Of a stretch of 64,000 nt of DNA, positions 8,274 through 43,865 are shown piece after piece (positions within the stretch are counted from its first letter, which is position 1; each line of letters begins with the position of its first letter). The translations under genes and the position numbers were made by a program. The notes under the pieces were generated by a model, which saw only the letters and a program-made list of their open reading frames with translations, searched no databases and was not told the DNA's origin. Source of the DNA: an uncultured Alphaproteobacteria bacterium (GTDB lineage: Bacteria; Pseudomonadota; Alphaproteobacteria; Rhizobiales; Beijerinckiaceae). The stretch covers positions 1-64,000 of the forward strand of contig CAVQNF010000002.1 of NCBI GenBank assembly GCA_963713805.1, read 5' to 3'.

Positions 8274-9542
8274 GTGACGCAATCGGCAAGGGCTCTTCGA
8301 CGCGCAACTGCCGTCAACCTGAACAGTGCGGTTCACCGCAGCGGGGCGTTTTCGCGCGCCGGTCTTTTGGAACGCCTCTTCACCTTCGCGTTCCGCGGTC
8401 TCGTCTATCCTCAGATCTGGGAGGACCCGGTCGTCGACATGGCGGCGCTCGACATGCGCCCCGACGATCATCTGGTCGCGATCGCGTCGGGTAGCTGCAA
8501 CATCCTGTCGTATCTCACGGCGAACCCTGCCCGCATCAGCGCCGTCGACCTCAACGGCGCGCATGTCGCGCTCGGTCGATTGAAGCTCGCGGCGTTGCGC
8601 CATCTGCCCGATTACGAGTCGTTTTTGCGCTTCTTCGGCACCGCCCGATCGCGCGACAATGTGGCCGCCTATGATACCCGCATCAAGCCGCATCTCGATT
8701 CCGTCTCGCGCGCCTATTGGGAAGCGCGCGCGGCTGAATGGCCGGCGGCGCATCACGGCCTTCACGGATAATTTCTACCGCCATGGTCTTTTGGGAAATT
8801 TCATCGGCGCGGGGCATCTCCTGGCGCGCCTCTACGGTTGCGACCCCGGGCGCGGTGCTCGAAGCCGACGGGCTGGCGCAGCAACGCATCCTCTACGAAC
8901 GGCACATGGCGCCGATCTTCGACAAGGCCTTCCTGCGCTGGCTGATCCGGCAGCCCGCCTCGCTCTACGGGCTCGGCATCCCGCCCTCGCAATATCGCAG
9001 CCTGTCGCGGGACCTTCCCGACGGCATCGCGGCCGTGCTTGCGCCAACGGCTCGAGAGGCTCGCCTGCGGCTTCGACATCAAGACCAATTACTTCGCCTG
9101 GCAAGCCTTCGGGCGCCGCTATGCGACGACCGGCGACGCAGCGCTGCCGCCCTATCTGCAGCGGCAGCATTTCGACACCCTGCGCGCGCGCGCCGAGCGC
9201 GTGCGTCTCCAACAGGCTTCGCTGACCGAGATTTCTCGCGCAAAGCCCGGCCGAGAGCGTCGACTGCTATGTCCTCCTCGACGCGCAGGACTGGATGAAC
9301 GACGAGGACCTCACCGCGCTTTGGACCGAGATCACGCGCACCGCCCGCCCGGGCGCCCGCGTGATCTTCCGAACCGCGGCCGACGAGAGGCTGCTGCCGG
9401 GACGGCTGCCGGCCGCATCTCCTCGCGGCTTGGAGCTATGACCACGCGCGTTCGCGCGAGCTCGGGCGAACGCGATCGCTCCTCGATCTACGGCGCCTTC
9501 CATCTCTACCGGCTGGGGAAGGTTACGGTGACAGTGCCTTAA
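8274..9542 (+). pseudogene. btaA: Betaine-lipid synthase BtaA (DUF3419), multiply frameshifted
   Basis: BtaA-like segments are spread over at least 4 frames: LERLFTFAFRGLVYPQIWEDP...IASGSCNILSYL...AVDLN; RITAFTDNFYRHGLLGNFIGAGHLLARLYGCDP; ILYERHMAPIFDKAFLRWL..SLYGLGIPPSQY; RLACGFDIKTNYFAWQAFGRRY; VLLDAQDWMNDEDLTALWTEITRTARPGARVIFRTAA; DRSSIYGAFHLYRLG. Confidence 0.7.
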
Positions 9543-9626
9543 TTCCGTGTCACCCATAGGCGAAGGAAGTGCCTGGAATTAAGTGCACTGTCACCGAAAT
9601 TGCGGACGGGCGAATCCGGCGCCTTG

Positions 9627-10257
9627 ATGGATCGCATCTATCGTCACCAGCGCCATATCTATGATGCGAGCCGCAAGTTCTACCTGCTCGGCCGTGACAG
9701 CTTGATCGCCGGCTCTCGAGCCGCCCGAAGGCGCGAGCGTGCTCGAGATCGGCTGCGGCACCGGGCGCAACCTCATCAAGCTCGCGAGATTCTATCCCGG
9801 CGCTCTCTGCCATGGGCTGGATATATCCGCCGCGATGCTCGACACGGCGCGCCAGGCAACGATGCGCGCCGGCCTTTGCGACCGCATCTTGCTCGCGCAA
9901 GCCGATGCGGCATGTTTCGATCCCGATGGCGCTCTTCGGGCGCGCGAGCTTCGATCGCATCGTCATATCCTACGCGCTCTCGATGATCCCGCCCTGGCGC
10001 GAGGCGCTGGCGGGCGCGGTCGCCCGCCTCTCGCCCGGCGGTTCGCTCCACATCGTCGATTTCGGCGATCAGGCAGGCTTGCCGGCCCCGTTCCGCTTCG
10101 CGCTCGTCGCTGGCTCGCGCTCTTCCACGTGACGCCGCGCCGGACGCTTGCGGCCGAGCTCGCCGAGCTCGCGCGATCGAAGGGCCTCGGCTGGCGCTCG
10201 GTGAGCCGGTTTCGCGGTTATGCGCTTTATGCGGTGGTCGAGCGGCCAGTGGCGTAA
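9627..10257 (+). pseudogene. btaB: SAM-dependent N-methyltransferase BtaB, 3 frameshifts
   Basis: MDRIYRHQRHIYDASRKFYLLGRDSLIAG, then (shift) SVLEIGCGTGRNLIKLARFYPG...ACFDPDGAL, then (shift) FGRASFDRIVISYALSMIPPWREALAGAVARLSPGGSLHIVDFGDQAG, then (shift) WLALFHVTPRR...VERPVA*. Confidence 0.7.
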
Positions 10258-12203
10258 CCCGAGACCGGCGTCGCCTCGCGGTTCCTACCTTCGGTCTCAT
10301 CGAAACGCAGCAAGCGTCCCGCATTGGCGAGCACCGCGAAGGTGCCGAGATTATGCAGCACCGCGGCGACGAGCGCCCCGTTCGGCCCGAGCGCCCCGCT
10401 GGCCGCGGCGACGATCACGGAAAGCGTCCAGCCGAGGCCGAGCGCGACATTGACGGCGAGCGTCGAGCGGCAGCGCCGGCTGAGCCGGATGCAGGTCGGC
10501 ACCCGCCGCAGGTCGTCGGTGACGAGCACGATGTCCGCCGAGGCCGCCGCGATGTCGGTGCCCTGGGCGCCGAGCGCCATGCCCACCGCGCCGGCCTTGA
10601 GCGCGAGCGAATCGTTGATGCCGTCCCCGATCACCAGCGGACGGTTGCCCGCGCGAGATCTCGGCGAGAACGCGCGCCAGCTTGTCCTCGGGAAGCGCCT
10701 GCGCCTGGACATCGCCGATGCCGATGAGCGCGGCGACGCGATGCGCCACCGGCTCGCGATCGCCGGTGAGCAGGAGCTGGCGCGTCGACGCCGAGCGCGG
10801 CGAGCTCGGCGCAACGCCGAGGCCGCTTCAGGTCGCGGCTCGTCGGCGAGCAGGATCCAGCCGAGAAAGCGGCCTCCGAGCGCCACGCCGACCACCGGCC
10901 CGTCATGGGCGGGCGGCGCGGGAAAGGCGATGCCGAGCTCCGTCAAAAGTTGCGCCCGGCCGAGCGCCGCCTGGCGCCCATCGTCGAGCCCCGTCACGCC
11001 GAGACCATGCCGCTCGCGAAGCTCGCCGATGGGGCGGCGTCGGTCCGGCGAGACGGCGCCGGCAAGCGCGCGGCTCACCGGATGGGTGCTCGCCGCGCCG
11101 AGGCTGGCGGCGACCGTCATAAGCTCATCCGGCGAGGCTCCCGGCGCGGGCTCGCTCGCCACGACATGGAGACGGCCGAGCGTCAACGTGCCCGTCTTGT
11201 CGAAGATCGCCGAGGTGACGTCGGCAAGCTGCTCGAGAAAGCCCACGCCTTTGATGAGGATGCCGTGGCGCGCCGCCACCGCCACCGCCGCGACGGCGGT
11301 CGCGGGCGCGGCGAGCACGAGGGCGCAAGGGCAGGAGGCGACGAGCACGGCGAGCATCGCGTCGGTGTTGCCGGTCGCGAACCAGGTACCCGCCGAAAGG
11401 AGAAGCACGAACACGATGTAGCGGCCCGCGTAACGCTCGAGGAGGCGCGTCACCGGGGGCTTCGAGCGTTCGGCGGTCTGCATGAGCGCCACCACGCGCC
11501 CGAGCGTCGTGTCTTCGCCGGTACGCGTCACTTCGACGACGAGGCGGCCTTGCAAGTTGATGCTTCCGGCGAAGACGTTGCCGCCGGCTTCGACTTCGAC
11601 CGGCACTGATTCTCCCGTGATCGAGGCGAGATCGACGGAGGAATTCCCCTCCCGAACGATGCCGTCGGTCGGCACGCGATCGCCCGCCCATAGCTCGACG
11701 CGGTCGCCCGGGCGCAGATCCTCGGCGCCGACCTCCTCGAGCGCACCGTCCCTGGCGCGCCGGCGCGCCCCCACATGGGTCAACCGGTTCAGCGAGCGGA
11801 TCGCTTCTTGCGAACCGATGAGGCTTCTTTCCTCGAGCACATGGCCGATGATCATCACGATCGGCAGGATCGCCGCCGTCATCAGCTCTCCCGTGGCCCA
11901 GGCTGCCGCGAGCGCCATGGCGATCAGCTGATCCGTCACGCCATGCAGGCTCGGATGGCGCAGGCTGTGCCAGGCGGCGCTCAGGACCGGGACGGCCACG
12001 AGCGCCGCCGCGAGCCCCGCGACCAGGTTGGCGAGCGCGCTCTCGTCGGGGAACATTGCCTCCCAAAAAAGGGCGACGAGAAGAAGTCCACCCGCCAAAA
12101 GAGCGAGCGCGAGGCGCATCCCGAGCGACCATCGCTCGGCCCGGCTGAGAATGCTCTCCGCCGCGACGCTTTCCGGCATCGGCGCGAGGGTGGAGACGCT
12201 CAT
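10227..12203 (-). pseudogene. P1B-type (heavy-metal) P-type ATPase with no N-terminal HMA domain; at least 3 clustered frameshifts around 10.63-10.80 kb
   Basis: TGES, CPC and DKTGTLT motifs lie in the main frame. In the P-domain the main frame becomes R/S-rich junk, while the homologous sequence (AELAALGVD / QLLLTGDREPVAHRVAALIGIGDVQAQALPEDKLARVLAEISRGQ) sits in two other frames before returning to the main frame at RPLVIGDGINDSLALKAG. Confidence 0.7.
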
Positions 12204-16384: not shown

Positions 16385-16830
16385 AACTGGTTCCCCGCCT
16401 GCGCGGGGATGAGCGGGAGAGGTTTGGCCCCCCCGCTCAGGCCCGCAGCCTCACCCCCGCTCATTCCCGCAGCCTCACCCCGCTCATTCCCGCAGCCTCA
16501 CCCTCGCTCATTCCCGCGAAGGCGGGAATCCAGGCTCGTAGGGCAGCTCCGAGAACAGCTGGTTCCCCGCCTGCACGGGGATGAGCGGAGAGGTTTGAGC
16601 CCTCGCTCATTCCCGCAGCCCCACCCCCGCTCATTCCCGCGAAAGCGGGAATCCAGGCTCGTAGGGCAGCTCCGAGAACAGCTGGTTCCCCGCCTGCGCG
16701 GGGATGAGCGGAGAGGTTTGAGCCCTCGCTCATTCCGGCAGCCCCACCCCCGCTCATTCCCGCGAAAGCGGGAATCCAGGCTCGTAGGGCAGCTCCGAGA
16801 ACAGCTGGTTCCCCGCCTGCGCGGGGATGA
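16385..16830. repeat. Tandem array (about 123-bp period, about 3.5 units) of double-hairpin palindromic elements
   Basis: Recurring modules are ggttccccgc-ctgc-gcggggatgagcgg and gctcattcccgc-gaaa-gcgggaatccagg, separated by a ctcgtagggcagctccgagaacagctgg spacer and gctcattcccgcagcc(c/t)cacccc linkers. Direct repeats are visible at 16506, 16629 and 16752. Confidence 0.8.
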
Positions 16831-16891
16831 GCGGAGGGGTGAAGGCGCCGGCCCCCTCACCTCTCCCGCAGGGTCCCGCAGGGAGAGGTGA

Positions 16892-18910
16892 TCAGCGGCA
16901 GAGGTTCACGCGCGTGCGGCAGACCTCGATGAAGCTCGAGTTGAAGCTGATGAGCGAACCAAGCGGGTTGCCGTTCTCGTCGAGCGTCGGGGCGCTGGAG
17001 TTCTTCTTCATCGTCGATCCGCCCGAATTCCCGGCTTGCGAGCCGCTTGTATCGGAGACTTGCACGATGAGGCTCGCGAGCACCGGATCGATGAAGGAGA
17101 AGACCGGCGTTCCGTTGCCCTGATCCATGCTGAAGGGCACGGGCGGGAGCGAGTTGTTCGCCGCCGTGACGAGAAGCGTGCCGGGCACGAAGGTGATGTC
17201 GAAATTCGGCGAGCTCACGCCGCCGGCGAAGATCTTGAAGCTTCCCGGCGAGCCCGTGGGCGCGTTCGTCGTGAAGCTGAGCATGCCGGTAAGCGCGCTC
17301 GGCCCGAGCCCCCCGGGGAACGGCCCGAAGCTCGCGCTGAACACGGGCTCCGGCGTGCCGACCACCTGCGTTTCGTTGCTCGCCGTGATGGTGAGCGGCG
17401 CCGGCGTGATCGTGCCCGTCGCGTTGACGACGGTGAGCGTGTAATTCCCGCCGCCATTGCCGTCGTTCACCGTGAGCGGGCCGAGCGCCATGGCGCGGCT
17501 TCCCGCATTCGCCGAAGCGAAGCTCTCGGCGAGCCCGCTCACGCTGTCGGTCCCCTTGAGGCCCGACACTTGCGCGCTCACGCTCGAGCCCGTGGTGCCG
17601 TCGAACACCTTGTTGTCCGACACTGCGCTCACCGTGAGCTGCGCCTTGTCGATCGTGCCCGTGGCGTTGACGAAGGTGATGGCGTAATTCCCGCCGCCAT
17701 TGCCGTCGCTCACCAAACCCGACGCCGACAGCGTGCTGCCATTCTGGCCGAGCACATTCTTCGAGCCGAAGGCTTGCGTGTAGCTCGCCGTGTCGTCGAC
17801 GTTGTGGCCCGTGACGATCACGGTTCCACCTGCCGCTCCGCTCATCCCCGCGAAAGCGGGGATCGAGTTCTTCGAGCCATTCCCGGCCGAGCCTGGGTTC
17901 CCGCCTGCGCGGGAACGAGCGGAGGGGGTGCCGCCGCTCACGTCGATGCGGCCCGTCACCTTCGCGAGCTTCGTCGCCTTGATGGTGACGCGCCCGCCCG
18001 AGCCGTCGCGGTTGCTCGCCGAAATGCGGCCCGCTCGCGAAGACGCTGCCGCCCGCCGTGAGCCACACATGGCCGCCGCGCATCGCGCTGCCCGTCGCGC
18101 GAATCATGCCGGTGTGATTGCCGGCGAGCGCATAGACATTGCCGCCCGCGGCCTTGAGCTCGGCTTGCGCCGCCGCGATCGCGCCCTTGTTCCTCACATC
18201 GCCCTTGCCGTAGCGCACCGCCATGCGGCCGCCGCCGACCGACATGTCCTTGAGGAGCACCTCTTGGCCGGCGCCCAGGCCCACCGTCCCGTTCGGCGCG
18301 TTGATCGAGCCCGAATTCACCACCGAGCGCGCGATGAGGAAGACATCCCCGCCGGAGGACGAGATCGAGCCGAGGTTCTTCACCATCCCGTCGCTTCGCG
18401 CCCTTGCCCTCGAAGCGCAAGGTCGAGCCCGCCATGAAGTTCTGGTTCGAGATGTCGAGCGAGGAGGCGACGAAGGAGCCGCCCGTCGTGATGACGCCGC
18501 TCTTGCCGACCACCACGCCTTGCGGGTTCACGAGATAGACCGAGCCCGTGGCGCGCGAGCGTGCCCATGATCTGCGAGAGCGATGCCGCCGGTGACGCGA
18601 TCGAGCGTCGCGCCCATGCCGTTGTTGATCTTGACCGTGCCGCTCTTGCCGATCGAGAAGCTGTTGAAATCGATGATGCCGCGCTGGCTCGATTGCGTGA
18701 TCGTCTCGGTGAGGCCTTGCGTGCCGATCGAGCCCGTGCCTGCGACAAAATGCCCGCCTTGCGGGAGCATGTTCGCCGGGACGGCGACGGGCGAGCCCGC
18801 CTGCGCCGCCGAGGCCGCAGCAAGGAGTGAAGTGCTTGCGAGCGCCGTGCTCGCCGCGAGGCTTGCGAGGAAGCGCCGATGGGCACCACGTCGGGCCGTG
18901 CCGGGAGCCA
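16892..18910 (-). pseudogene. Filamentous-hemagglutinin/TpsA-like exoprotein (TPS secretion domain plus MBG-like repeats), frameshifted; no TpsB partner in the window
   Basis: Signal peptide MAPGTARRGAHRRFLASLAASTALASTSLLAAASAAQA. TPS domain LPQGGHFVAGTGSIGTQGLTETITQSSQRGIIDFNSFSIGKSGTVKINNGMGATLDRVTGG. The sequence continues in other frames (NPQGVVVGKSGVITTGGSFVASSLDISNQNF...; ...ATGSAMRGGHVWLTAGG). The C-terminal part has GNGGGNYxxTxVNATGTI...LT(I/V) repeats. Confidence 0.65.
17841..17930. repeat. One copy of the double-hairpin element inserted in frame inside the FHA-like coding sequence
   Basis: ccgctcatccccgcgaaagcggggatcgag...gggttcccgcctgcgcgggaacgagcgg. It is translated as ...GNPGSAGNGSKNSIPAFAGMSGAAGG... 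inside the ORF. Confidence 0.7.
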
Positions 18911-19280
18911 TGCGCCCCCGCTCGCTCTCGAACACGCCCGCCTCGCGGCAGGCCCCATCAGAATGACGAATGGACATAGTGCCCCTCATTGCGTCAGCAA
19001 GGCCGAAATCGGCCTTGAGGCTTTGCCTCATCAGATCGCTTATGAAACTAGCCTCAACTCTAACTTCGACGTGAGCACGTGGAAGATTGAGCGCCCGTGA
19101 CGTTCGTAAGGCACGCCGAGCACTCTCATACAGCCTCTATTCCCTTTAACACAGCCGGGCCCCACAAGATATCGTGATCGTTGCGGCCCATTTCCCTGTG
19201 CAATTGTCCGGCTTATCTACTACGGATAAATTTGTAAATGGCCGTTCACATGTACCAACTTTTGTTAGCGATGGCCAACA

Positions 19281-19352
19281 AGCCTGGATTCCCGCTTGCG
19301 CGGGAATGAGCGGAGGTGAGGCTGCGGGAATGAGCGGGGGTGAGGCGCGGAA
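19281..19352. repeat. Double-hairpin element fragments (inverted orientation relative to the 16.4-16.8 kb array) abutting the GIY-YIG start
   Basis: cctggattcccgcttgcgcgggaatgagcgg aggtgaggctgcgggaatgagcgggggtgagg is the reverse complement of motifs in the 16.4-16.8 kb array. Confidence 0.7.
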
Positions 19353-19640
19353 ATGAGCTTCTACGTCTATATTCTGGCGAGCCGACGCAACGGCACGCTC
19401 TATATCGGCATGACGGACGATCTCAATCGGCGGGTTTTCCAGCATCAGGAAGGAGTGTTCCCGGGATTCACCAAAAAATACGGGGTCAAAATTTTGGTCT
19501 GGTTCGAGCAGCATGAAACCCGCGAGAGCGCCTTTCGTCGAGAGCGCGCTTTGAAGAAATGGAATCGAGCCTGGAAGCTGGCGCTCATCGAGCGCTCCAA
19601 TCCGACTTGGCGTGATTTAGCCTTGGAACTTGAACCGTGA
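19353..19640 (+). CDS. GIY-YIG nuclease family protein (small, UvrC-N-like)
   Basis: MSFYVYILASRRNGTLYIGMTDDLNRRVFQHQEG...: the GIY-YIG core (YVYIL..GTLYIG..DL.RR...H). 95 aa. The ATG lies inside a repeat motif variant (gcgcggaaATGAGCttc). Confidence 0.85.
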   Translation: MSFYVYILASRRNGTLYIGMTDDLNRRVFQHQEGVFPGFTKKYGVKILVWFEQHETRESAFRRERALKKWNRAWKLALIERSNPTWRDLALELEP

Positions 19641-19666
19641 GCCGTCATCTCATACCTCTCCGCCGT

Positions 19667-19808
19667 CCCCGCTATGCGCTACATTTCCGCTCATCCCCGC
19701 AATGCACTACATTTCCGCTCATCCCCGCAATGCACTACATTTCCGCTCATCCCCGCAATGCACTACATTTCCGCTCATCCCCGCAATGCACTACACATTT
19801 CCGCTCAT
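19667..19808. repeat. 28-bp direct tandem repeat, 5 copies (ccccgcaatgcactacatttccgctcat)
   Basis: Adjacent copies at 19667, 19695, 19723, 19751 and 19779 (the last carries a 2-bp insertion). No spacers, so not CRISPR. Confidence 0.8.
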
Positions 19809-19925
19809 CCCCGCGAAGGCGGGGATCCAGTTCTTGGAGCTGCCCTATAAGCCTGATTCCCGCTTGCGCGGGAATGAGCGGGGGTGAGGCTGCGGGAATG
19901 AGCGGGGTGAGGCTGCGGGCATGAT
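19801..19925. repeat. Complete double-hairpin element plus tail
   Basis: ccgctcat-ccccgc-gaag-gcgggg-atccag-ttcttggagctgccctataagcctg-attcccgc-ttgc-gcgggaat-gagcgg, then gggtgaggctgcgggaatgagcgg. Confidence 0.75.
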
Positions 19926-19945
19926 GGGTGGGCTCAAACCTCTCG

Positions 19946-20035
19946 GCTCATCCCCGCAATGCCCTACATTTCCGCTCGCCCCCGCAATGCACTACATTTC
20001 CGCTCGTCCCCGCAATGCGCTACATTTCCGCTCAT
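19946..20035. repeat. 28-bp tandem repeat, 3 degenerate copies
   Basis: ctcatccccgcaatgccctacatttccg / ctcgcccccgcaatgcactacatttccg / ctcgtccccgcaatgcgctacatttccg. Confidence 0.7.
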
Positions 20036-20145
20036 CCCCGCGAAGGCGGGGATCCAGTTCTTGGAGCTGCCTTATAAGCCTGGATTCCCGCTTGCGCGGG
20101 AATGAGCGGGGGTGAGGTTGCGGGAATAAGCTGGGGCGAGGCTGC
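20028..20145. repeat. Second complete double-hairpin element plus tail
   Basis: Near-identical to 19801..19925 (ccgctcatccccgcgaaggcggggatccagttcttggagctgccttataagcctggattcccgcttgcgcgggaatgagcgg...). Confidence 0.75.
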
Positions 20146-20177
20146 GGAATTCCGTAATTCTCCTAATTCAGAATGCG

Positions 20178-22445
20178 TCAGAAGCTCTTCGACAGCCCGG
20201 CGAGGATCGTGCGCCTTTGCCCGAATTGCGGCGCCGCGACCCCGATGCCGGTGCCGTTGCGAAGCTCGTATTTGCGGTCCGTGAGGTTGATCATGTCGAG
20301 GCGGGCCGTCATCTTGCCCATTCCGGGCGCCTCGAACTCATGCTTGATGCCGGCGTTGACCTGCACGTAATTCGGCTGGCGCTGGGTGTTGGCGAAGCCC
20401 GATCTCAGCCCCGAGCCGGAGATCAGATCGGTGGTGAGCAGCGTGTCGACCGAGCCGATAGGAGGCGCCGCCCGAGATCGTGAAGCGCTGGTCGTGATCG
20501 AGATAGACCCAATGGATTCGCGACGAAGGCGAGCTCGTCGGCGGCGAAGAAGAACTGGCTCGAGATGATGTTCTTTCCTTGCGCGCGCGAATAGGCGAAA
20601 TTTCCGTAGAGTGAAAGATTGTCGATCTGGTAGGAGGCCGTGACCTCCGTCCCGTAGACCTTCCCATGCTGATAATTGAAGGGCGCGAAGACGAGCGCCT
20701 GGCCGAATTGGCCTTCATCGATCAGATCATTGGCGCGTTTGTAATAGGCGTCGAGGCCGAGCTGGAAATCGGGTCCGAATTTCTGGATGACGCCGGCGTC
20801 GAAATAATTCGCGCGCTCGGGCTTCACGGGAGCTATCCGCGGTGACGCTCGGAGCCGCCGTCGTGTTGGCGAATTTGGAGATCGTCTCGGGTGCGATCAA
20901 TTCCAGGGGCGGGGGCGTGAAATAGCGCGCGTAGCCGAGATGGACGGTGGTGCCGTCGAGCGGCTTGTAGACGAGATTGACGCGTGGTGAGAGCTGGTTC
21001 TTGTCGATGAATTGGAAGCTCTCGTCGAAGCTCGCGCCGTAGTTGAGCGTCAGCTTGTCGGAGATCTTCCACTCGTCCTGCGCGTAGAGGCCCGCGAGAT
21101 AGCCGATCTTCCTGCTGTTGTCGGAGATGGCGAAGGGCTGATCGATCGGGTTCCCGTTCGCGTCGAGCGGCAGCACGGTCGACAGATTGCTCGAGCGCGC
21201 GCGTTCCACATCGGCGAAGAAGCCGGCGCGAAAGGTGTGCGACGGATCGATCTGGTAGCTCAGATCGCCTTGAAGGCCGTTGGCGAAATTCTCATGGCGC
21301 ACATTGGAGGCGACGCCATTGAACAGGACGATCGCCGACCGGATCGGGGAAGAAATGCGTCAAGGTGTATCGGCTGAAATAGGCGAGCTGCATGTTCAGG
21401 TCGCCGAGCGATTTCTGCAAGGCGAGGATGTTGAAATTCGAATTCCTCCAATTGCTGCTCGCGCAGGCCCGCCGAGTTGAAATCCGAAATGCCGAAGGCG
21501 GTGAAGGCGGGCATCTGCCCGGGATTGTTGGGAAGCCGGAATTGGCTCACCGCCGTTCCGGAGATGAAGCTCAAGCGCGTGCTCTCGTCGATGATGCCGG
21601 AAAGGTAGAGAAAGCCCCTGCCCTGCTCGGTGAAATCCTTCACCGGAACGAGCGAGTGGGTGGGATTTTCGATGCCGATGTTGTTCTGGAGGTAGCTTCC
21701 GGAAACGAAGTAGTCGAGCTTTCCGGTCGAGCCCCCATAAGAGAAGCTCGGCAGGAAGGTCTGGCGCTGCCCGCCGTAAATCGACACTTCGCCACCGGGC
21801 TCGAGCGTTCCGCTCTTCGTCTCGATGTCGACGACGCCGGCGGTTCGGTAGCCGTATTCGGCCGGCAGCGCTCCGGTGATCAGATCGATGCGGCGCGCGA
21901 AGCGGGTGTCGAACAATTGCGAGAAGCCGCTGATCGTCTCGGGGATGATGATGCCGTTGATCCGAAATTGCAGGTTCGCATGATCGCCGCGCACATGGAG
22001 CTGGCCGAAGGAGTCCTGGGCAACGCCGGGCGCCTGAAGCAAGGTCTGGCTGAGCGATGCATTGTTGCCGAGCGGCTGGGTATCGATCGCCTCGCGGTTG
22101 ATCTCGTAGCTCGAGGCGCCGACCGCGGTCGAGATCTGGTTGCGCGCCTGGTCGAGCCGTGCGGCCGTGACCGTGATGTCGAACCGGTCGCTTTGCCCGA
22201 CTTCGGTCACCACGCTTCTCGTCGGACCGGGCTGCACGGCCGGGCCGCTGGTCGCCGGCGCGGCGGGCTCCCCGGTGCCCGCTGTCGTCTGAGGCGGGGC
22301 GGTGCTCGCAGGGGCTTGAGCGAAGGTCTGGGCTTGAGCGAAGGAGGTGAAACGAAACCAAGGCCCAGGAGGAGACAGAGGAGGAGACAGAGGAAGAAAC
22401 GCCTGAAGGCAACGAAAAAAGCGAAAGGCACCGGGGACACTCCAT
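20178..22445 (-). pseudogene. TonB-dependent outer-membrane receptor, at least 6 frameshifts
   Basis: Plug and barrel segments are spread across frames (VTAARLDQARNQISTAVGASSYEINREAIDTQPLGN...; RHENFANGLQGDLSYQI...; ANYFDAGVIQKFGPDFQLGLDAYYK...). The C-terminal ...RRTILAGLSKSF* carries the TonB-box-end aromatic residue. Signal peptide FFLCLLLCLLLGLGFVS. Confidence 0.75.
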
Positions 22446-22450
22446 TAAAT

Positions 22451-22501
22451 GTTACAACGTAACACTACGGAAATTTTTTATTAATGCAATAACGTTGCAT
22501 T
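22451..22501. promoter_or_regulatory. Two palindromes in the AT-rich region upstream of the TonB-dependent receptor (candidate operator)
   Basis: gttacAACGTaac (22451-22463) and aatgcaaTAACGttgcatt (22483-22501), immediately 5' of the receptor start on the minus strand. Confidence 0.3.
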
Positions 22502-22860
22502 TCTGGGAAAATTTGGGGTTGACCGGCGCGAGAGGATCGACAGGAGATGGGCTCACGAGGTTCGCTCGCCGGGGCGATGCTCCGCGAGGCAAAAGCTCAG
22601 TGCGCGGCGCGATGGCGAAGGTGCCTTCGCTTCGGCGTGCCGCATGACGTCCCGATCACGGAAAGGAGCGGTCGTGAAGAATTGCAGCCGGTCGCTTCCA
22701 GCCTCGCGCGGCCAATCATATGGACTTCACAAGCAAGATCGTCTTGATGAAAGCGGTTTTTCACGGATGCGGCGCATGCGCCAAGCCCTGCTTGCTCCGC
22801 TGCCCAGCGATGGGCGAAGCCGGGCCGACATCGGGCAAGGCGAGGGAGGGATCAAGGCTC

Positions 22861-24097
22861 ATGGATGTCTACCAGCGTTTGTCCGTCGCGAAGCGGGTGA
22901 ACGGAGCGGGGCTGCTGACGCGCCTCGGCGGCAGCCTCATGGATGCGCAAACGCTCGACGCCATGCGGGAGGCCGCGGGCGCCTTCGTCGACATCGCCGA
23001 ATTGCAGACGCGAGCGGGCGAGATCATCGCCGCGCCATACGGGAGCCCAAGCGGGCATCGTCACCGGCGGCGCGGCCGCGGCACTCACCCTTGCGACGGC
23101 GGCCTGCATCGCGCGCAACGATGTGGCGAAGATGGAGCGCCTGCCGGATACCGAGGGGATGGCCGACGAGGTCATCATCCACCGCGCCCATCGCACCGGC
23201 TATGACCACGCCATCAGGGCGGCAGGCGCGCGCCTCGTGGAGATCGGCCTCAATGATCGCGGGGTGGGCGCCGGCGTGCGTGATCTCGAAGCTTGGGAGA
23301 TCGAAGCGGCGATCGGGCCGAAAACGGCGGCGATCGCCTATACGGCGACGCCCGATCTCGAGCCCGCGCTATCCCGCGTCGTCGCGGTGGCGGAGCGTTT
23401 CAAGCTCCCGGTCATCGTCGATGCCGCGGCGCAATTGCCTCCCAAGGAGAATCTTCGCCGCTTCATCGAGGAAGGCGCGGCCCTCGTCGCCTTCAGCGGC
23501 GGCAAGGCCATCCGGGGGCCCCAAGGAACAGGAATCCTGTGCGGCCGCGAGGAACTCGTCGCCTCGGCCTTGATCCAGATGCTCGATCTCGACATCCTTC
23601 CCGAAACCTGGACGCCGCCCGAAGGTTTGCTCGCCCGGCATTTCGCCGATCGCTTTCCCCATCATGGCCTCGGACGCGGCTTCAAGGTCGACAAGGAATC
23701 GATCGTCGGGCTCGTGGTGGCGCTCGAGCGTTTCGTCGCTTGCGACCTCGAAGCGGAGATCGAGGGACGCCGCGAGCTCCTCTCGCGCATCGTCCGGACG
23801 ATTTCCGAGCTTCCCCATTGCCGCGCACGCGAGATCAGGCAGACGAAGGGGAAATATCCGGCGCTCGACATCGCGATCGATGTGGCGGCGCTCGGCAGCG
23901 ACGCTTATGCGGTGAGCCGTGCGCTGCAGCGCCATGACCCGCCGGTGCATCTGGGAGAGCGCCACGCCCGGCAAGGCGTCCTCGTCGTCGAACTCCGCGG
24001 GACTTCGGCCGGGCGATGAGGAGATCATCGCCCGTGCCCTGCGCATCGTCCTCACCGGCGCGGCGAGGACCTGTGCGACAACGAAGGAAAAGCAGTG
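22861..24097 (+). pseudogene. SelA-like / DgaE-like fold-type-I PLP-dependent enzyme, 2 frameshifts
   Basis: MDVYQRLSVAKRVNGAGLLTRLGGSLMDAQTLDAMREAAGAFVDIAELQ...; shift at about 23040 to ...IVTGGAAAALTLATAA...AFSGGKAIRGPQGTGIL...; the C-terminus continues in a third frame (...GDEEIIARALRIVLTG...*). GAGGGAGGGA RBS. Confidence 0.6.
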
Positions 24098-24867
24098 ATG
24101 TCCACGCGGCTCTTCGATCTTTCCGGGCGCACCGCGCTCGTCACCGGCTCGTCGCGCGGCCTCGGGCGCGCCATGGCGGAGGGTCTCGCGGCAGCCGGCG
24201 CCCGCATCGTCCTGCACGGCCAGGATGAGGCACCGCCTCTCCGCGGCGGCCGAGGCGATGCGCGGCGAAGGCCATGATGTGCGAAGCGTCCGCTTCGACA
24301 TCGCCGACGAGGCGGCGATCCTTACCGCCTTCGCGCGCCTCGATGCCGACGGCGTCGCGATCGACATCCTCGTCAACAATGCCGGCATCCAGCTGCGCAA
24401 GCCGATGCTCGAGCTTGCGACGCAGGAATGGCGCAAGGTGATCGACGCCAATCTCACGGGCGCCTTCATCGTCGGCCGCGAGGCAGCGAAGCGGATGGTG
24501 CCGCGCGGACGCGGGAAGATCGTCAATATCGGCTCGCTCACGAGCGAAGTGGCGCGCGCCACCATCGCGCCTTACGCGGTGTCGAAGGGCGGCATCAAGC
24601 TGCTCACGCGGGCCATGGCGGCCGAATGGGCCGCGCATGGCATCCAGGCGAATGCGATCGGGCCGGGCTACATGCTCACCGACATGAACAAGGCTCTCAT
24701 CGAGGACGAGAAATTCGACGCCTGGGTGAAGGCGCGCACGCCGGCGAAGCGTTGGGGGCGCCCCGAGGAACTGGTCGGGGCCGTGATCTTCCTCGCCTCG
24801 CGAAGCTTCCGATTACGTCAACGGCCAGATCATCTATGTCGATGGCGGCATGCTTGCGGTTCTGTGA
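24095..24867 (+). pseudogene. Gluconate 5-dehydrogenase-like SDR, 2 frameshifts
   Basis: MSTRLFDLSGRTALVTGSSRGLGRAMAEGLAAAGARIVLHG; shift at about 24235; ...DILVNNAGIQLRKP...NIGSLTSEVARATIAPYAVSKGGIKLLTRAMAAEWA...; 1-nt insertion at about 24815; then ...SDYVNGQIIYVDGGMLAVL*. Confidence 0.65.
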
Positions 24868-24885
24868 GCGCGGCGCGGCCCTGCC

Positions 24886-25404
24886 ATGACCTCGCAAGAG
24901 CTCCCCTATCGCACCAATGTCGGGATCGCGCTCTTCAACAGGCAAGGGCGCGTGCTGATCGCGCATCGTTTGCGCAATGACGGGCCGGAGATCATCCTTC
25001 CCGGCCATGAATGGCAAATGCCGCAAGGCGGCGTCGACCCGAACGAAGAGGCGCTCTCGGCGGCGCGTCGCGAATTATGGGAGGAGACGGCGGTCTTGAG
25101 CGCCGATTACCTCGGCGAGGTTTCCGACCCGATGACCTATGAGTTTCCGCCCTATGCCGGGCCGTGGCATCGGCTCTGCGCCTTCCGCGGCCAGCGCCAG
25201 CGCTGGTATGCGTTCCGCTTCACGGGGGATGATGGCGAGATCGATGTCGGCCGCGGCGAAGGCGGCGCCGACCCGGAATTCTCGCACTGGCGCTGGGAGC
25301 GGCTCGACAGAGTGGCGGCTCTCGTCGTGCCCTTCAAGCGCGAAATCTACGAGCGCGTGGCTCTCGAGTTTCGTGCCTTCGCCGAACCGGCACAATCAAG
25401 TTGA
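24886..25404 (+). CDS. rppH: RNA pyrophosphohydrolase RppH (Nudix hydrolase)
   Basis: LPYRTNVGIALFNRQGRVLIAHRL...WQMPQGGVDPNEEALSAARRELWEETAV: Nudix box. Intact. Confidence 0.8.
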   Translation: MTSQELPYRTNVGIALFNRQGRVLIAHRLRNDGPEIILPGHEWQMPQGGVDPNEEALSAARRELWEETAVLSADYLGEVSDPMTYEFPPYAGPWHRLCAFRGQRQRWYAFRFTGDDGEIDVGRGEGGADPEFSHWRWERLDRVAALVVPFKREIYERVALEFRAFAEPAQSS

Positions 25405-26869
25405 ATCCAGCCTCACCCGAAAGGCATCGACCAGGTCCGCACATTGGTGAAGCTCTTCATCGCTTCCACCACGCCTTCCTTGTAGCCAAGGCCTGAATCC
25501 TTGATGCCGCCGAACGGCGACATCTCGATGCGGTAGCCGGGCACTTCCCAGATGTTGACCGTGCCGACCTCGAGCTCCTGGATGAACCGCGTGATGTAGT
25601 CCATGCGGTTGGTGCACACGCCCGACGACAAGCCGTAGGCGGTCGAGTTCGAGATGCGGATGACGCTCGTCGATCTCGTCCGGAACCCGGATGATCGGGA
25701 TGACCGGGCCGAAGGTCTCCTGATGCACCAGCTCGCAATCGTAAGGCACGCGATCGACCACGGTCGGCGGAAAGAGCGCGCCGTTCGCGGGGCGCTCCGT
25801 GGAGCAGCTCGGCGCCTTTTGCGACGCGCGTCGTCGACGCGTCGCTCGAAAAGCTTCGCCGCCTCTTCGTTGATGACCGTGCCGACGTCGACGGAAGGGT
25901 CCATCGGATCCCCGCATTTCAGCTTCTTGGCCTTGGCGAGGACGAGCTCGACGAAATCGTCGGCGACGCTCTCGACGACGAGAATGCGCTTCACCGCCGT
26001 GCAACGCTGGCCCGAATTCTTGGTCGCGCCCTGCACGGCGAGCTCGGCCGCCTTGTCGAGATCGGCGTCCTCCATGACGATCAGCGGGATCGTTGCCGCC
26101 GAGCTCGAGCACCAGGCGGCGATAGCCGGCCTTCTCGGCGATGTATTTGCCGACGCGCACCGAGCCGGTGAAGGTGATGAGGTCGCAGTCCTCATCGGTG
26201 ATCATGGCATCGCCCATGGTGCGCGGATTGCCGGTGACGACGGAAAGCATCTGCGGCGGCAGCCCGGCCTCGTAGAGCACGTCGGCGAGCGCGAGCGCGG
26301 TCAGCGGGCGTGAGCTCGGTCGGCTTCAGCACGACGCGGTTGTTGGTGGCGATCGCGGGGGCGAGCTTGTGGCTCACCATGTTGAGCGGGATGATTGAAC
26401 GGGGTGATCGCCGAGATGACGCCGAGCAGCGGCAGGCGCGTCGTGAAGATCTTGCGGTTCTTGCCGTTCGGGCTGATGTCGCAGGAATAGATCTCGCCGT
26501 CGTCCTTGATGGTGAGCTGCGCCGCGAAGGACCAGACGTCGAAGGCGCGGCTTGCTTCGTAAAGCGAATCCTTCCAGCACAACCCGGATTCGGCGGTGAT
26601 CAGCCGCGCGAACTCTTCCTTGCGGTCGCGCAAGATCTCGGCCGTCGTCTGCAGGATGCGCTGACGCTCGATAGCGCGTGAGCTTCGGCCTGAAAGGCGC
26701 GCGCCTGGCGAAGGCGTCCCGCACATGCTCGGGCCGTCCGGCCGGAACGGTGCCGATCACCTCGTTGGTGTAGGGATTGAGCACCTCGACGACGCTCGTC
26801 GGTCGTCGACGAGCGTGCCGGCGATCCGCATGCATTCCTTGCGGATGGCCGGCTTCGCTTCGATATTCA
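25396..26869 (-). pseudogene. phnY: Aldehyde dehydrogenase, probably phosphonoacetaldehyde dehydrogenase PhnY (by context), at least 6 frameshifts
   Basis: ALDH-family segments lie in three frames ([23 protein letters not shown]...[14 protein letters not shown]; ...[12 protein letters not shown]; [24 protein letters not shown]; [49 protein letters not shown]; [37 protein letters not shown]...; ...[32 protein letters not shown]). GAGAGG RBS. Adjacent to phnA and phnW. Confidence 0.65.
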
Positions 26870-26930
26870 TCGCATTCACCTCTCGGTGACGCGTAGCTCT
26901 CGCGCGAGCTGCCTCGCACCTGTCAACGGC

Positions 26931-28256
<1,326 letters not shown>

Positions 28257-29436
28257 TCAGACGCTCAGGCAGCCTTGCGCGGCGGGATCGCTCACGCCCA
28301 TCTCGTCGAGCACCTCGCGCACGGCCGCAAGACGCCCGCTGCATCTCCTTTTCGCCGATGCGCCCGATGCAGCCGATGCGGAAGCAATCCGCGACGGTCA
28401 GCTTGCCCGGATAGATCACATAGCCACGCTCCTTCAGCCCATCGTAGAAAGCGCTGGAAAACGAAGCGCGGATGGGTCGGCATGTGGAAGGTGACGATGA
28501 TCGGCGCCTGCAGATGATCGGGAAGCAAGGTGCGAAAGCCGAGCTCCCGCATGCCCGACACCAGGATGCGGCAATTTTCGCGGTAGCGACGGCCACGCCC
28601 CTCGACACCGCCCTCAGCCGCGAATTCCCGCAAGGCCTGGTGGAAGGCGACGATCACATGGATGGGGGGCGTGAAACGGTATTGCCCGGTCTTCTCGAGA
28701 TTCGCCCATTGGTCGTGCAGGTCGAGGACCAGCGTCGTCGCCTGACCCTTGGTCGCGACGAGCGCCTCGCGCCGGCAGATGACGAAGCCGAGGCCGGGCA
28801 CGCCCTCGATGCATTTGTTCGAGGAGGCGGCGACCGCATCGACATGGGCTCTTCGCACATCGAGCGGCAGCGCCCCGAAGGCGCTCATCGAATTGAGGAG
28901 AAAGCTCTTCCCATGTGGCGTCGGCGAGCGCGCCGATCTCGTCGATCGGGTTGAGGATGCCGGAGGTCGTCTCGCAATGGACCGCGAAGATATGGGTGAT
29001 CGAAGGCGTGCGCCTCAAGATGCGCTCCACCTTCTCGAGGTCGGGCAACGGTGTCCTCGGGCGTCTCGTGCACGAGCGTGCGGCGCCGCGCGATCTCGAG
29101 GATGCGCTTCGCCCGATGCCCGTAGGCGCCGTTGACGAGGAGGAGCACCCTCCCCTTCGGCGGCACGAAGCTCGTCAGCATGGCTTCGACCGCGAAGGTG
29201 CCGGAGCCTTGCACCGGCACCGTGACGTAGTCCTCGCCGCCTTTGGCGATTTCAGGCAGGCGTTGCAGCACCGCCTTGTTGATCGCGAGAAAGCCCGCAT
29301 CGCGCGAGCCCCAATCATGCACCATGGCCGCCTTCACGCTGCGTGACGTGGTGAGGGGGCCGGGCGTCAGGAGAAAAGGGTCGCCGGTCTCGGACGCGGC
29401 TCTTCGGAGAGGTTTGGAGGATGAGTTATCCGTCAT
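28257..29436 (-). pseudogene. phnW: 2-aminoethylphosphonate--pyruvate transaminase PhnW, at least 3 frameshifts
   Basis: MTDNSSSKPLRRAASETGDPFLLTPGPLTTSRSVKAAMVHDWGSRDAGFLAINKAVLQRLPEIAKGGEDYVTVPVQGSGTFAVEAM...; SSNKCIEGVPGLGFVICRREAL...LVLDLHDQWANLEKTGQYRFTPP; [40 protein letters not shown]; the C-terminus ...[21 protein letters not shown] is in another frame. GGGAGA RBS. Confidence 0.7.
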
Positions 29437-29574
29437 GCTTCTCCCGTGAGATTTCCAGATCGCTCTTGATTCCAGATCGCTGTTGGCGCGACGGCGCAAA
29501 CGCCCGCTCGCCGATCGCGCCATGGTTTCTAGCGGCCTCAACAAAATCAGTCAAGTTGCCACATAATGCCACTT

Positions 29575-30450
29575 TCATGTCAGGCGCGTGACAGTGCCTA
29601 GAACATCCGCATGCAGAAAAGGCCGCCGAGAATGAACGCTCCCGACACGGCTCGCACACGCGTCATCGGCTCCTTCAGGAAGACGACGGCGATCAAGCCT
29701 GCCGAAAAGCACGCTCGTCTCGCGGATCGCCGCCACGAGCGCGATGGGCGCGACCGTCATGGCCCAGATGGCGATCCAATAGGCGGCGAGCGACATCGCT
29801 CCGCCGGCGAAGCCGGGCGCGAGGAAGCCGAGCGCCGGCTTCACCCCTTTGAACCCTTTCCACAGGAGACAAATGATCAGCATCGGATAGGCATCGACCG
29901 CGAACAGGGCAGCGGCGTAGGCATTCGCATCCCCAGCCGCGCGCGCGCCCATGCCGTCGACGATCGTGTAGGAGGAGATGGTGATCGCGGTGAGCAGCGC
30001 GCAGCTCACGGCGACCTTGCTCGGTGCCATGAGATGGCGATGGCCGCGCAGCGAAATCAGGAGAACGCCTGCGCCCAGAAGCAGGATGCCGATCCCGTTT
30101 CCGGCGCTGATCGGATCGTGCACCAGGGCGAGCGAGGCCAGCGCCGTCATCAGCGGCGCGGCGCCTCTTGCGATGGGGTAGATCTGGCCCATGTCGGCGC
30201 GGCGATAGGCCTCGGCGAGGAAGAGGTAATAGCCGAGATGGATGACCACCGAGGCGATGATCCACGGCCAGGCCTCGGCCTTGGGCAGGCCGGTAACCAG
30301 GAGCGCCGGCAGCGCGATCACGCCGCAGGTGAAGCAGATCAGCGTCATCGCGAGAAAAGGATCGAGCCTGATCTTGATGAGCGCGTTCCAGCCCGCATGC
30401 AGCGCGGCCGCGATCAGCACCGCAAGGAAGACGAAGAGGCTGAGGTGCAT
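29575..30450 (-). CDS. EamA/DMT-family transporter (10 TM), C-terminal end possibly frameshifted
   Basis: MHLSLFVFLAVLIAAALHAGWNALIKIRLDPFLA...: an EamA-like duplicated 5-TM architecture. The last 40 or so residues (RLDRRRLPEGADDAC...) look out of frame. Confidence 0.6.
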   Translation of the reverse strand: MHLSLFVFLAVLIAAALHAGWNALIKIRLDPFLAMTLICFTCGVIALPALLVTGLPKAEAWPWIIASVVIHLGYYLFLAEAYRRADMGQIYPIARGAAPLMTALASLALVHDPISAGNGIGILLLGAGVLLISLRGHRHLMAPSKVAVSCALLTAITISSYTIVDGMGARAAGDANAYAAALFAVDAYPMLIICLLWKGFKGVKPALGFLAPGFAGGAMSLAAYWIAIWAMTVAPIALVAAIRETSVLFGRLDRRRLPEGADDACASRVGSVHSRRPFLHADVLGTVTRLT

Positions 30451-43106: not shown

Positions 43107-43865
43107 ATGAAAGTTTCATTGAAGCGGGCGCAAGGCGTTCGACTGTCGTTGCTGTCCGTGACCGTCGCGGCCTTGCTGGGCGTAAGTCATGCGGCTCTGG
43201 CCGCGAGCGCAGGCGCAGGTGGCGGCGCGAGCGCCGGGGGCGCAGGCGGCGCCGGAGCCGGCGGGGGTGTCGGCGCGAGCGCCGGCGGCGGTGGAGGAGT
43301 CGGCGCCGGCGGGGGTGTCGGCGCGAGCGCCGGCGGCGGCGGAGGCGTCGGAGCCGGTGGGGGTGTCGGCGCGAGCGCCGGCGGCGGTGGGGGCGTCGGA
43401 GCCGGTGGAGGTGTAGGCGCGAGCGCCGGCGGCGGTGGGGGAGTCGGAGCCGGCGGAGGTGTCGGCGCAAGCGCCGGCGGCGGTGGGGGCGTCGGAGCGG
43501 GCGCTGGCGTGGGCGCTGGCGGCGGTGGGGGGGGCGTCGGAGCGGGAGCAGGCGTGGGCGCTGGCGCAGGCGGTGTCGGAGCGGGCGGAGGTGTCGGCAC
43601 GAGCGCGAGTGGCGGTGCCGGTGCCCAAGTCGGTGGGTCCGGAGCTTCCACGAGCGTGGGTTCCGTGAGTGGCGTGGGAAGCGCGCCATCCTCGGCGGGC
43701 ATCGGAGTGTCCTCACCGGGTGCGGCTCAAGCCAGCCTCGAGGGAGTGCAAGGATCCCAGCTCCGCTTGATGCTCAAGCGTCGTTGCCCGACGATCATGG
43801 CGAATGTCAGCGCCTTCGATGATGACCTCGTGCACCTATGCCAGCTCTCGGCAAGGCTCAGGTGA
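43107..43865 (+). CDS. Secreted glycine/alanine-rich repetitive protein
   Basis: AGGAGG RBS. Signal peptide MKVSLKRAQGVRLSLLSVTVAALLGVSHAALA. At least 5 copies of the 16-aa unit GVGASAGGGGGVGAGG. Non-repetitive C-terminus ...RCPTIMANVSAFDDDLVHLCQLSARLR. Confidence 0.6.
   Translation: MKVSLKRAQGVRLSLLSVTVAALLGVSHAALAASAGAGGGASAGGAGGAGAGGGVGASAGGGGGVGAGGGVGASAGGGGGVGAGGGVGASAGGGGGVGAGGGVGASAGGGGGVGAGGGVGASAGGGGGVGAGAGVGAGGGGGGVGAGAGVGAGAGGVGAGGGVGTSASGGAGAQVGGSGASTSVGSVSGVGSAPSSAGIGVSSPGAAQASLEGVQGSQLRLMLKRRCPTIMANVSAFDDDLVHLCQLSARLR
43262..43620. repeat. 48-bp in-frame tandem repeats (gggggtgtcggcgcgagcgccggcggcggtggaggagtcggcgccggc, 5 or more units) inside the Gly-rich gene
   Basis: Direct repeats visible at 43262, 43310, 43358, 43406 and 43454, with degenerate copies to about 43620. 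Confidence 0.75.

Follow-up and report, generated by a model that had tools for sequence, protein, structure and literature searches.

The DNA analysed here, a 64,000-nt stretch of contig CAVQNF010000002.1 from an uncultured alphaproteobacterium (hereafter the window), contains at 16385–20147 a cluster of hairpin-forming repeats that surrounds a gene for a small GIY-YIG nuclease. Judged by its sequence, this cluster is very probably an Ssn/SRM locus, and the 95-aa product of the gene a homologue of SsnA, a GIY-YIG endonuclease that acts on single-stranded DNA (ssDNA) only. Read so, the locus exemplifies a system described in 2025 (Chenal et al., 2025, Nat Commun 16:2388; PMC11893778), with repeats catalogued in 2013 (Di Nocera et al., 2013; PMC3733652), and it opens no new field. 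The initial annotation of this DNA had regarded the repeats as a new-looking family and their pairing with a GIY-YIG protein as undescribed. Both views have to be given up, since the 2013 catalogue already lists such repeats as CGTC-tagged repetitive extragenic palindromes (REPs), and the 2025 study reported the association together with a hairpin-guided ssDNA nuclease.

The gene (19353–19640, plus strand) is, as first annotated, intact and enclosed by the repeats, and is predicted to encode a single-domain nuclease. Pfam domain PF01541 (GIY-YIG) spans residues 3–75 of 95 (E = 7.7e-16), and the Pfam search revealed no further domain. Tyr6, Tyr17, Arg27 and Glu64 are conserved, with Y6, Y17 and E64 forming invariant columns in an alignment of 20 sequences. 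The best profile matches among PDB structures were to small stand-alone GIY-YIG proteins of bacteria, 1zg2 (E = 7.8e-08) and 1ywl (E = 4.2e-06). Relatives of the protein number more than 5,600; the best 120 are 74–100% identical to it and lie mostly on metagenome contigs of ~1 kb, and an identical protein is present on independent JGI contigs. Homologues from Sphingomonadaceae that share 65–69% identity with the window protein have flanking repeats with the canonical tag CGTCAT, of the type called Neisseria Transformation Sequence (NTS).

SsnA of Neisseria meningitidis (NMV_0044) has 94 aa and a single GIY-YIG domain (CDD cd10448). It binds the repeat hairpin in ssDNA only and on the tagged strand only, cuts a few nucleotides upstream, and acts neither on duplex DNA or RNA nor on the complementary strand; the substitutions Y6A, Y17A and E64A abolish cleavage. 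Activity was shown for the homologues of N. meningitidis, N. elongata, N. wadsworthii and Wolbachia pipientis, and SsnA reduces transformation by repeat-bearing DNA. The NTS, CGTCATTCCCGCGMAVGCGGGAATCYRG, is a subset of the dRS3 repeats, and the Neisseria repeats cluster around surface-protein genes. The same study likened the repeat-ssnA-repeat unit to an insertion sequence (IS) and already drew the comparison with REPs and their associated tyrosine transposases, RAYTs (PMC11893778). The CGTC-tagged REPs, families CGTC-1 to CGTC-4, have an 8–9 bp stem that starts with AT, a loop of 4–5 nt and a CCA tail, form inverted dimers and occur mainly in Alphaproteobacteria. They include the Neisseria dRS3 and the Rickettsia RPE-4 and RPE-6 repeats, were described in 2013 as apparently without a dedicated transposase, and show the tag variants TGTC and CCTC (PMC3733652).

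In the window, 14 complete hairpin modules were found within 16385–20147, arranged as six tail-to-tail doublets and two solo modules, and nothing resembling the cluster was seen in the other 60 kb. The tag with its half-stem, CCGCTCATYCCCGC, has 30 matches with up to two mismatches in 64 kb (29 of them within 16403–20133) where 4.6 are expected, so the double-hairpin repeats, placed and described correctly at the outset, stand far above chance. Each ~30-nt module is composed of an unpaired tag CCGCTC, an 8-bp stem (A/G)T(T/C)CCCGC with a purine-rich 4-nt loop, and a tail CCAG, for example ATTCCCGC-GAAA-GCGGGAAT followed by CCAG; the strand of the F-modules carries ACATTTCCGCTCATCCCCGCGAAGGCGGGGATCCAG. 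The six doublets are inverted dimers of such modules. A doublet runs from CCGCTCAT through the stem-loop, ATCCAG and a ~26-bp spacer into a mirror image ending in ATGAGCGG, and the 8-bp "terminal inverted repeats" of the initial annotation are the orientation tags of two modules set tail to tail. The folding check proposed there turned out positive: as ssDNA the doublets reach z = −3.8 to −6.5, and a single module −9.7 kcal/mol (z = −3.0). The published 26-nt NTS core, TCATTCCCGCGMAVGCGGGAATCYRG, is matched 13 times in the window with no more than three mismatches, and five of these matches are exact, against 0 expected.

To place the locus among its relatives, a scan of one genome per species was used. 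It yielded 80 loci with proteins 62–82% identical to that of the window; with one further locus the set comprises 81, mostly from Hyphomicrobiales, Caulobacterales and Sphingomonadales, with a few metagenome-assembled genomes (MAGs) labelled Chloroflexota, Elusimicrobia, Lentisphaeria and gamma- or deltaproteobacteria. Hairpins matching YCCCGC-N3-5-GCGGGR occur at 3.6/kb in the 250 bp upstream of the gene and 4.4/kb in the 250 bp downstream, and at ~0.05/kb beyond 500 bp, that is, with 70–80-fold enrichment within 250 bp. At least one hairpin lies within 500 bp of the gene in 68 of the 81 loci, and inverted repeats of ~20–51 bp bracket the gene in 53. These figures agree with those published for ssnA homologues across bacteria, which have at least one flanking repeat in 71% and repeats on both sides in 42% of cases (PMC11893778). 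The suggestion that the locus is a repeat-associated nuclease module analogous to REP/RAYT pairs is borne out by them.

The geometry is also regular. The commonest layout, left module, gene, right module, is seen in 32 of the 81 loci under the strict motif and with tight spacing: the tag-left module usually ends 15–33 bp before the start codon and the tag-right module starts 7–16 bp past the stop. In most species the gene thus occupies the spacer of a double hairpin. We considered whether pairs with tails outward might be the true unit and rejected this, as the flanks of 45 loci show that tag-outward pairing encloses the gene. In the window lineage the layout is rearranged, the gene lying between complete doublets and being flanked by arrays of half-modules. 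Since compensatory stem variants occur across species (ATTCCCGC/GCGGGAAT, GTCCCCGC/GCGGGGAC, CCCGGC/GCCGGG, CCCAGC/GCTGGG) and the modules fold as ssDNA, the hairpin appears to be under selection.

The association runs in one direction. In an unbiased metagenome sample of 88 modules, 79 were assessable; none was followed by the gene, two had it within 1 kb, and 32 were gene-less doublets while 47 were solo. Dispersal without a link to GIY-YIG genes, named in the initial annotation as grounds for dropping the idea, is therefore true of the repeats, most of which lie far from the gene, yet the gene itself is almost always flanked. This is the REP/RAYT-like pattern of many dispersed repeats and one flanked gene. 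It has to be set against the view that these are ordinary REP-type repeats, mobilised by RAYTs or targeted by IS110 elements, which lie beside an unrelated repair nuclease by chance, or that they act on the RNA level as terminators or stabilisers. The membership of the repeats in the catalogued CGTC-tagged superfamily, the distance of most copies from any GIY-YIG gene and the former assignment of small COG2827 nucleases to repair all fit this view. On the other hand, the local enrichment is specific to the GIY-YIG gene among the ~20 genes of each 20-kb locus, the tag co-varies with the protein clade, and CGTC REPs occur without associated RAYT genes (PMC3733652). The hairpins are moreover not intrinsic terminators, because no T-run follows them, and binding and cleavage of the hairpin have been directly shown for homologues. 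Coincidence is in our opinion hardly credible and close to refuted.

Several variants of the layout may be mentioned. In the Brevundimonas group (L037, L041, L044, L049, L046, L055) the left module alone is retained, and the stop codon of the gene runs directly into a conserved downstream gene; the position is syntenic in six species, and the copy looks fixed and possibly domesticated. Upstream of the gene in a Lysobacter MAG (L042) and a deltaproteobacterial MAG (L062), there are modules that carry, instead of the 4-nt loop, ~30 nt of inserted sequence (GAAGCTTGCCCCCGAACGCCTGAATCGGGGGG and similar), itself potentially able to pair. The closest species-level relative (L004, 82% identical) has two tandem GIY-YIG genes, at 9493–9771 and 10001–10279, with hairpin modules between them, and is the only locus among L001–L083 with more than one gene copy. 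Just outside the left tag there is often an AT-rich sequence resembling a −10 box (TATAAT, TACTAT, TATTAT, CATAAT, TAAAAT), for example in L009, L010, L014, L015, L018, L029 and L077, in genomes otherwise of ~65% GC; because several of these loci are orthologous, the independent cases are few.

If the window locus works as its characterised relatives do, each module would be the recognition element of the nuclease. By analogy with the four homologues studied, a module would fold into a hairpin when the DNA turns single-stranded, and the nuclease would dock on the hairpin of the tagged strand and cut a few nucleotides 5' of CCGCTC, sparing duplex DNA, RNA and the complement. A doublet or a bracketed gene would then offer two cut sites on opposite strands, just outside the unit, and arrays one site per unit on each strand. 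With Neisseria as the guide, the likely effect would be the cutting of module-bearing single strands, such as incoming transforming or conjugating DNA, which would lower or reshape recombination around the module-flanked genes, here those of a haemagglutinin-like adhesin and a TonB-dependent receptor. Elsewhere, the many solo modules and doublets without a gene may represent a dispersed population of targets, comparable to the REPs around RAYT genes.

Several points weigh against assigning the locus to the Ssn/SRM system. The published degenerate SRM string, HGTCWYN(0-2)YYVSBRHN(0-5)WNVSBRGN(0-2)RNCYNB, applied strictly, has no match in the window. The activity of the window homologue, and of the subclade with a variant tag to which it belongs, is predicted from other homologues, and the likeness to N. 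meningitidis SsnA and cd10448 is drawn from their published description. A role in modulating transformation is known from Neisseria only, and nothing points to natural competence of the window alphaproteobacterium. Finally, the 24-bp and 28-bp arrays of half-modules are not accounted for by the known activity of Ssn.

As to the first of these points, the SRM string has 11 matches in the window when one extra tag base is allowed (CGCTCAT instead of CGTCAT). On the side of the protein tree with the canonical tag (CGTCAT), the published string is matched in 21 of 25 loci; on the window's side it is matched in 2 of 56, and a tag with one extra pyrimidine, G-Y-TC-R-Y, occurs in 50 of the 56. The tag of the window's subclade, CCG-Y-TC, is thus one base longer, and follows a Hyphomicrobiales/Caulobacterales branch of the protein tree. 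Because the variant follows the tree, and the SRM string is a search tool and not a definition, we read the failed match as pointing to a variant of the tag rather than to exclusion from the family. Given the lack of strict matches, membership at the level of the repeats rests on the core palindrome, the tail and the shifted tag. Cleavage by SsnA is controlled by the three bases immediately upstream of the palindrome, so that the branch with the extra pyrimidine may have a shifted cleavage specificity.

Two other repeat families were considered and rejected. The Caulobacter CIR repeats came into question for the GAATC/GATTC sites that flank T-type stems; by their description, with GANTC in the terminal loop and two long arms joined by a linker, they do not fit. 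Coxiella QMITE2 is a GTAG-type REP targeted by IS1111 and hence belongs to another family. An Rfam search of 15.5–21 kb gave sub-threshold chance matches to microRNA models and nothing else.

The left part of the cluster begins with a solo module (16387–16416, minus strand; C-type stem, tag at the right end), found by motif matches, and with 3.7 copies of a 24-bp half-module tandem repeat (CCGCTCAT with the 5' half of the stem; 16430–16517, plus strand; repeat families D6 and D7). Tandem arrays were called here and below with TRF and a repeat finder. Then follows a 123-bp array (16481–16840, 97% identity), whose existence is confirmed with 2.9 copies instead of the ~3.5 first estimated. It contains three doublets, recognised as repeats and by motif matches: 16504–16588, with modules at 16504–16533 (plus) and 16559–16588 (minus, with one stem mismatch); 16627–16711 (z = −4.0 for the fold of 16620–16716); and 16750–16834. 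An isolated doublet at 17838–17922 (~87 bp with its edges; z = −3.8), detected by motif matches, had been overlooked. It is crossed in frame by a minus-strand haemagglutinin-like open reading frame (ORF) at 16892–18070, which reads through it as the peptide SARSRAGGNPGSAGNGSKNSIPAFAGMSG.

Directly 5' of the nuclease gene lies a solo right-hand module (19284–19313, minus strand) that matches the NTS core exactly. Of the copy formerly placed at 19281–19352 it is the only module present; it is followed by 24-bp repeats (GCGGGAATGAGCGG with GGTGAGGCT; 19298–19358, plus strand, 2.6 copies). Their last copy contains both a Shine-Dalgarno-like GGTGAGG and the ATGAGC with which the gene starts. Downstream of the gene, a minisatellite of 28-bp half-modules (CCGCTCAT-CCCCGC with AATGCACTACATTT; 19659–19814, plus strand) has 5.5 copies and leads into a doublet at 19801–19881 (modules 19801–19830, plus, and 19852–19881, minus; repeats and motif matches). 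Further on are 23/24-bp half-module repeats (19868–19924, plus), a second 28-bp minisatellite with 3.4 copies (19946–20041, plus), a doublet at 20028–20109 (modules 20028–20057, plus, and 20080–20109, minus; fold of 20024–20112, z = −6.3 on the plus and −6.5 on the minus strand) and, at the end of the cluster, 2.2 copies of 24-bp half-module repeats (20096–20147, plus). The two downstream doublets and the two minisatellites, announced as five and three units reusing the left half-hairpin, were correctly seen. After the 23/24-bp repeats, a gene-less junction at 19910–19945, GCGGGCATGATGGGTGGGCTCAAACCTCTC, resembles both flanks of the gene in comparison with L002. A 229-bp unit is repeated at 19717–20147. 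The 24-bp and 28-bp repeats are half-modules, i.e., the tag and the 5' half of the stem, and not hairpins; the 28-bp array does not fold as ssDNA (z = −0.26). The array at 16.4–16.8 kb is, as noted before, inverted relative to the copies at 19.3–20.1 kb (inverted pairs I1–I25), but it lies 2.5 kb away, and the immediate flanks of the gene share one orientation, so opposite orientations on the two sides of the gene could not be upheld.

The module clusters bracket a haemagglutinin-like surface-protein gene of the two-partner-secretion type (16857–19031, minus strand, in several frames) and abut a gene for a TonB-dependent receptor. The former, with Pfam MBG_2 and YDG domains in the ORF at 16892–18070, is context and not part of the nuclease module. 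We compared this region with 16 metagenome contigs of the window lineage. The GIY-YIG gene has the same chromosomal position in all 16; it is separated from the receptor gene by 538 bp in the window and by 374, 402 or 510 bp in related strains. The copy number of the 28-bp minisatellite at 19659–19814 differs between strains, the 123-bp array is longer or shorter by one unit, and the haemagglutinin-like gene shows deletions of ~0.8 kb (17978 to 18792) and ~1.2 kb (17407 to 18618), as read from the window vs L086, L087, L090, L095 and L091. The differences are thus copy-number changes and deletions, not insertions, which suggests recombination between repeats, or slippage, more than transposition. 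Of the strain comparison proposed in the initial annotation, polymorphism of the repeats was found; insertions were not.

It should be mentioned that genes in the window are broken over several frames at 16857–19031 and 20145–29828, including that of the TonB-dependent receptor (20178–22237, minus strand). The same genes are unbroken in near-identical short-read metagenome contigs, where the receptor is one ORF of 745 aa (L084, L085, L088–L090). In alignments of the window with the short-read contigs there are 92 gaps over 9.7 kb, or about one per 100 bp. A long-read assembly with indel errors is the probable source of the window, and differences of one base among the repeat copies should therefore not be over-read. 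GC-rich tandem repeats of coding type at 52412–52906 (period 15–60 bp), 43202–43597 (24–48 bp) and 34628–34734 (9–21 bp), which appeared in the tandem-repeat table only, are unrelated to the hairpin family.

The architecture of the locus raises the question of mobility. The module-ssnA-module unit (~370–400 bp) could be an active selfish element, an autonomous IS-like transposon mobilised by the GIY-YIG protein, with the 85-bp gene-less doublets as non-autonomous derivatives similar to REPINs or to MITEs (miniature transposable elements with inverted repeats). This partly overlaps with the Ssn/SRM assignment, to which it adds mobility, and we hold it to be rather unlikely. In its favour, the unit is compact, with the inverted repeats closing around the ORF in the 53 bracketed loci; it occurs in at least 57 different genomic contexts; and homologues with modules appear in MAGs assigned to Chloroflexota, Elusimicrobia, Lentisphaeria, gamma- and deltaproteobacteria. 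The 32 gene-less doublets among the 79 random modules, the doublet within an ORF at 17838–17922 and the gene-less junctions of the window that resemble both gene flanks fit it as well, and the same idea was raised by Chenal et al. (2025; PMC11893778).

Other observations speak against mobility. No consistent direct repeat was seen in the flanks of 45 bracketed genes, where some loci are AT-rich. An all-against-all comparison of flanks gave candidate empty sites in the pairs L052/L047, L018/L024 and L056/L053, but no clean boundaries; the alignments were too diverged or had a solo module in place of the doublet. The position of the gene is kept across species in seven syntenic groups with 31 loci as well as in all strain-level contigs of the window lineage, and the gene follows none of the 79 random modules. 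Because SsnA cuts one strand orientation only, cleavage at a unit's two modules would fall on opposite strands, unlike the same-strand cuts of IS200/IS605. To our knowledge, GIY-YIG enzymes have no strand-joining activity. We only tentatively put forward that module-ssnA-module is, or recently was, self-mobilising through a hydrolytic GIY-YIG nuclease that cuts ssDNA, with the 85-bp doublets as its non-autonomous copies, and, separately, that the CCG-Y-TC subclade has a distinct specificity that searches with the SRM string have overlooked. If true, a self-mobilising unit would explain the doublet within the ORF and the changes of copy number between strains, the half-module minisatellites would be scars left by successive rounds of cleavage and repair at the tag, and mobility by such a nuclease would represent a kind of element not yet demonstrated.

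Another route into the doublets would be homing, with a free-standing homing endonuclease gene whose product cuts the spacer of empty doublets and which is copied in by repair from a filled one, the hairpin repeats pre-existing and spreading by other means. GIY-YIG is a classic fold of homing endonucleases, the gene replaces the ~26-bp spacer of the doublet in most species, and many empty doublets exist. However, the characterised members of the family never cut duplex DNA and cut outside the module, not in the spacer; homology arms of ~30 bp are short for recombinational repair; usually there is one gene copy per locus, with a tandem pair in L004 only; and synteny is conserved across species. 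We consider homing quite improbable and keep to the Ssn/SRM assignment.

Beyond the published description, the window and its relatives add modestly to the Ssn/SRM system: a subclade with a variant tag, half-module minisatellites and strain polymorphism. The partnership of gene and repeats is independently confirmed on 81 species-level loci, with an enrichment resolved by distance and an exact nesting geometry. Censuses of repeats by the published string probably under-count, as a large alphaproteobacterial branch has a tag one base longer, and this branch is predicted to be a ready source of enzymes with differing ssDNA cleavage specificity, which is relevant to the proposed uses in biotechnology. 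The 16 contigs represent a natural population with variable arrays around the gene and an adhesin, in which questions of recombination and mobility can be approached outside Neisseria.

Among known systems, GIY-YIG homing endonucleases such as I-TevI and the Seg proteins share the catalytic fold with the window protein, which lacks a DNA-binding domain of its own and whose characterised Ssn relatives do not cut duplex DNA. The UPF0213 or bacterial Slx1-like proteins (1zg2, 1ywl; E. coli YhbQ) have the same minimal GIY-YIG domain of ~95 aa, but are only ~30% identical to the window protein and have not been reported with flanking repeats. We know of none among them that carries the motifs PGFTxKYGV and KKWNRxWK...NPxWxDL of the window family. 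MITEs such as the Correia elements are likewise short, bounded by inverted repeats and present in gene-containing and gene-less versions, and differ from the window elements in that no target-site duplication was seen with the latter.

With the REP/REPIN-RAYT and IS200/IS605 systems, the locus shares a single, mostly vertically inherited nuclease gene between two inverted hairpin repeats, and the dispersal of the same repeats as singlets and inverted doublets. Recognition of the hairpin in ssDNA and a cut at the unpaired tag beside the stem would be a further common feature, as far as the window protein behaves like its homologues. Unlike a RAYT, the enzyme is a hydrolytic GIY-YIG nuclease and not a Y1 HUH transposase, and works without a covalent intermediate; the tag is CGTC-like and not GTAG. 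The locus is thus REP/RAYT-like but not a member of that group. Its modules, arranged mostly as inverted dimers, correspond well to the CGTC REPs in their 8-bp stem that begins with AT, their loop of 4 nt and their CCA tail, and the in-frame copy inside a gene at 17838–17922 has its counterpart in the Rickettsia RPEs. Before the stem, the window tag reads GCTC or GTTC, another variant of the CGTC tag. The 2013 catalogue found no dedicated enzyme (PMC3733652); the window repeats are partnered by a GIY-YIG gene, as in the 2025 study (PMC11893778).

The Ssn system itself is the closest match, although the tag of the window is CCG-C/T-TC and not CGTC, and although the gene is placed between complete doublets and accompanied by half-module minisatellites of 24 and 28 bp, which are absent from the published description (PMC11893778). 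The proteins agree in their length of 94–95 aa, their single domain and Tyr6, Tyr17 and Glu64. Oriented hairpin repeats stand on both sides of the gene, and in five window copies ATTCCCGCG-loop-CGCGGGAAT-CCAG is identical to the NTS core. Within Alphaproteobacteria both the homologues and the repeats are widespread, and the module clusters of the window, like the repeats of Neisseria, bracket surface-protein genes that vary between strains.

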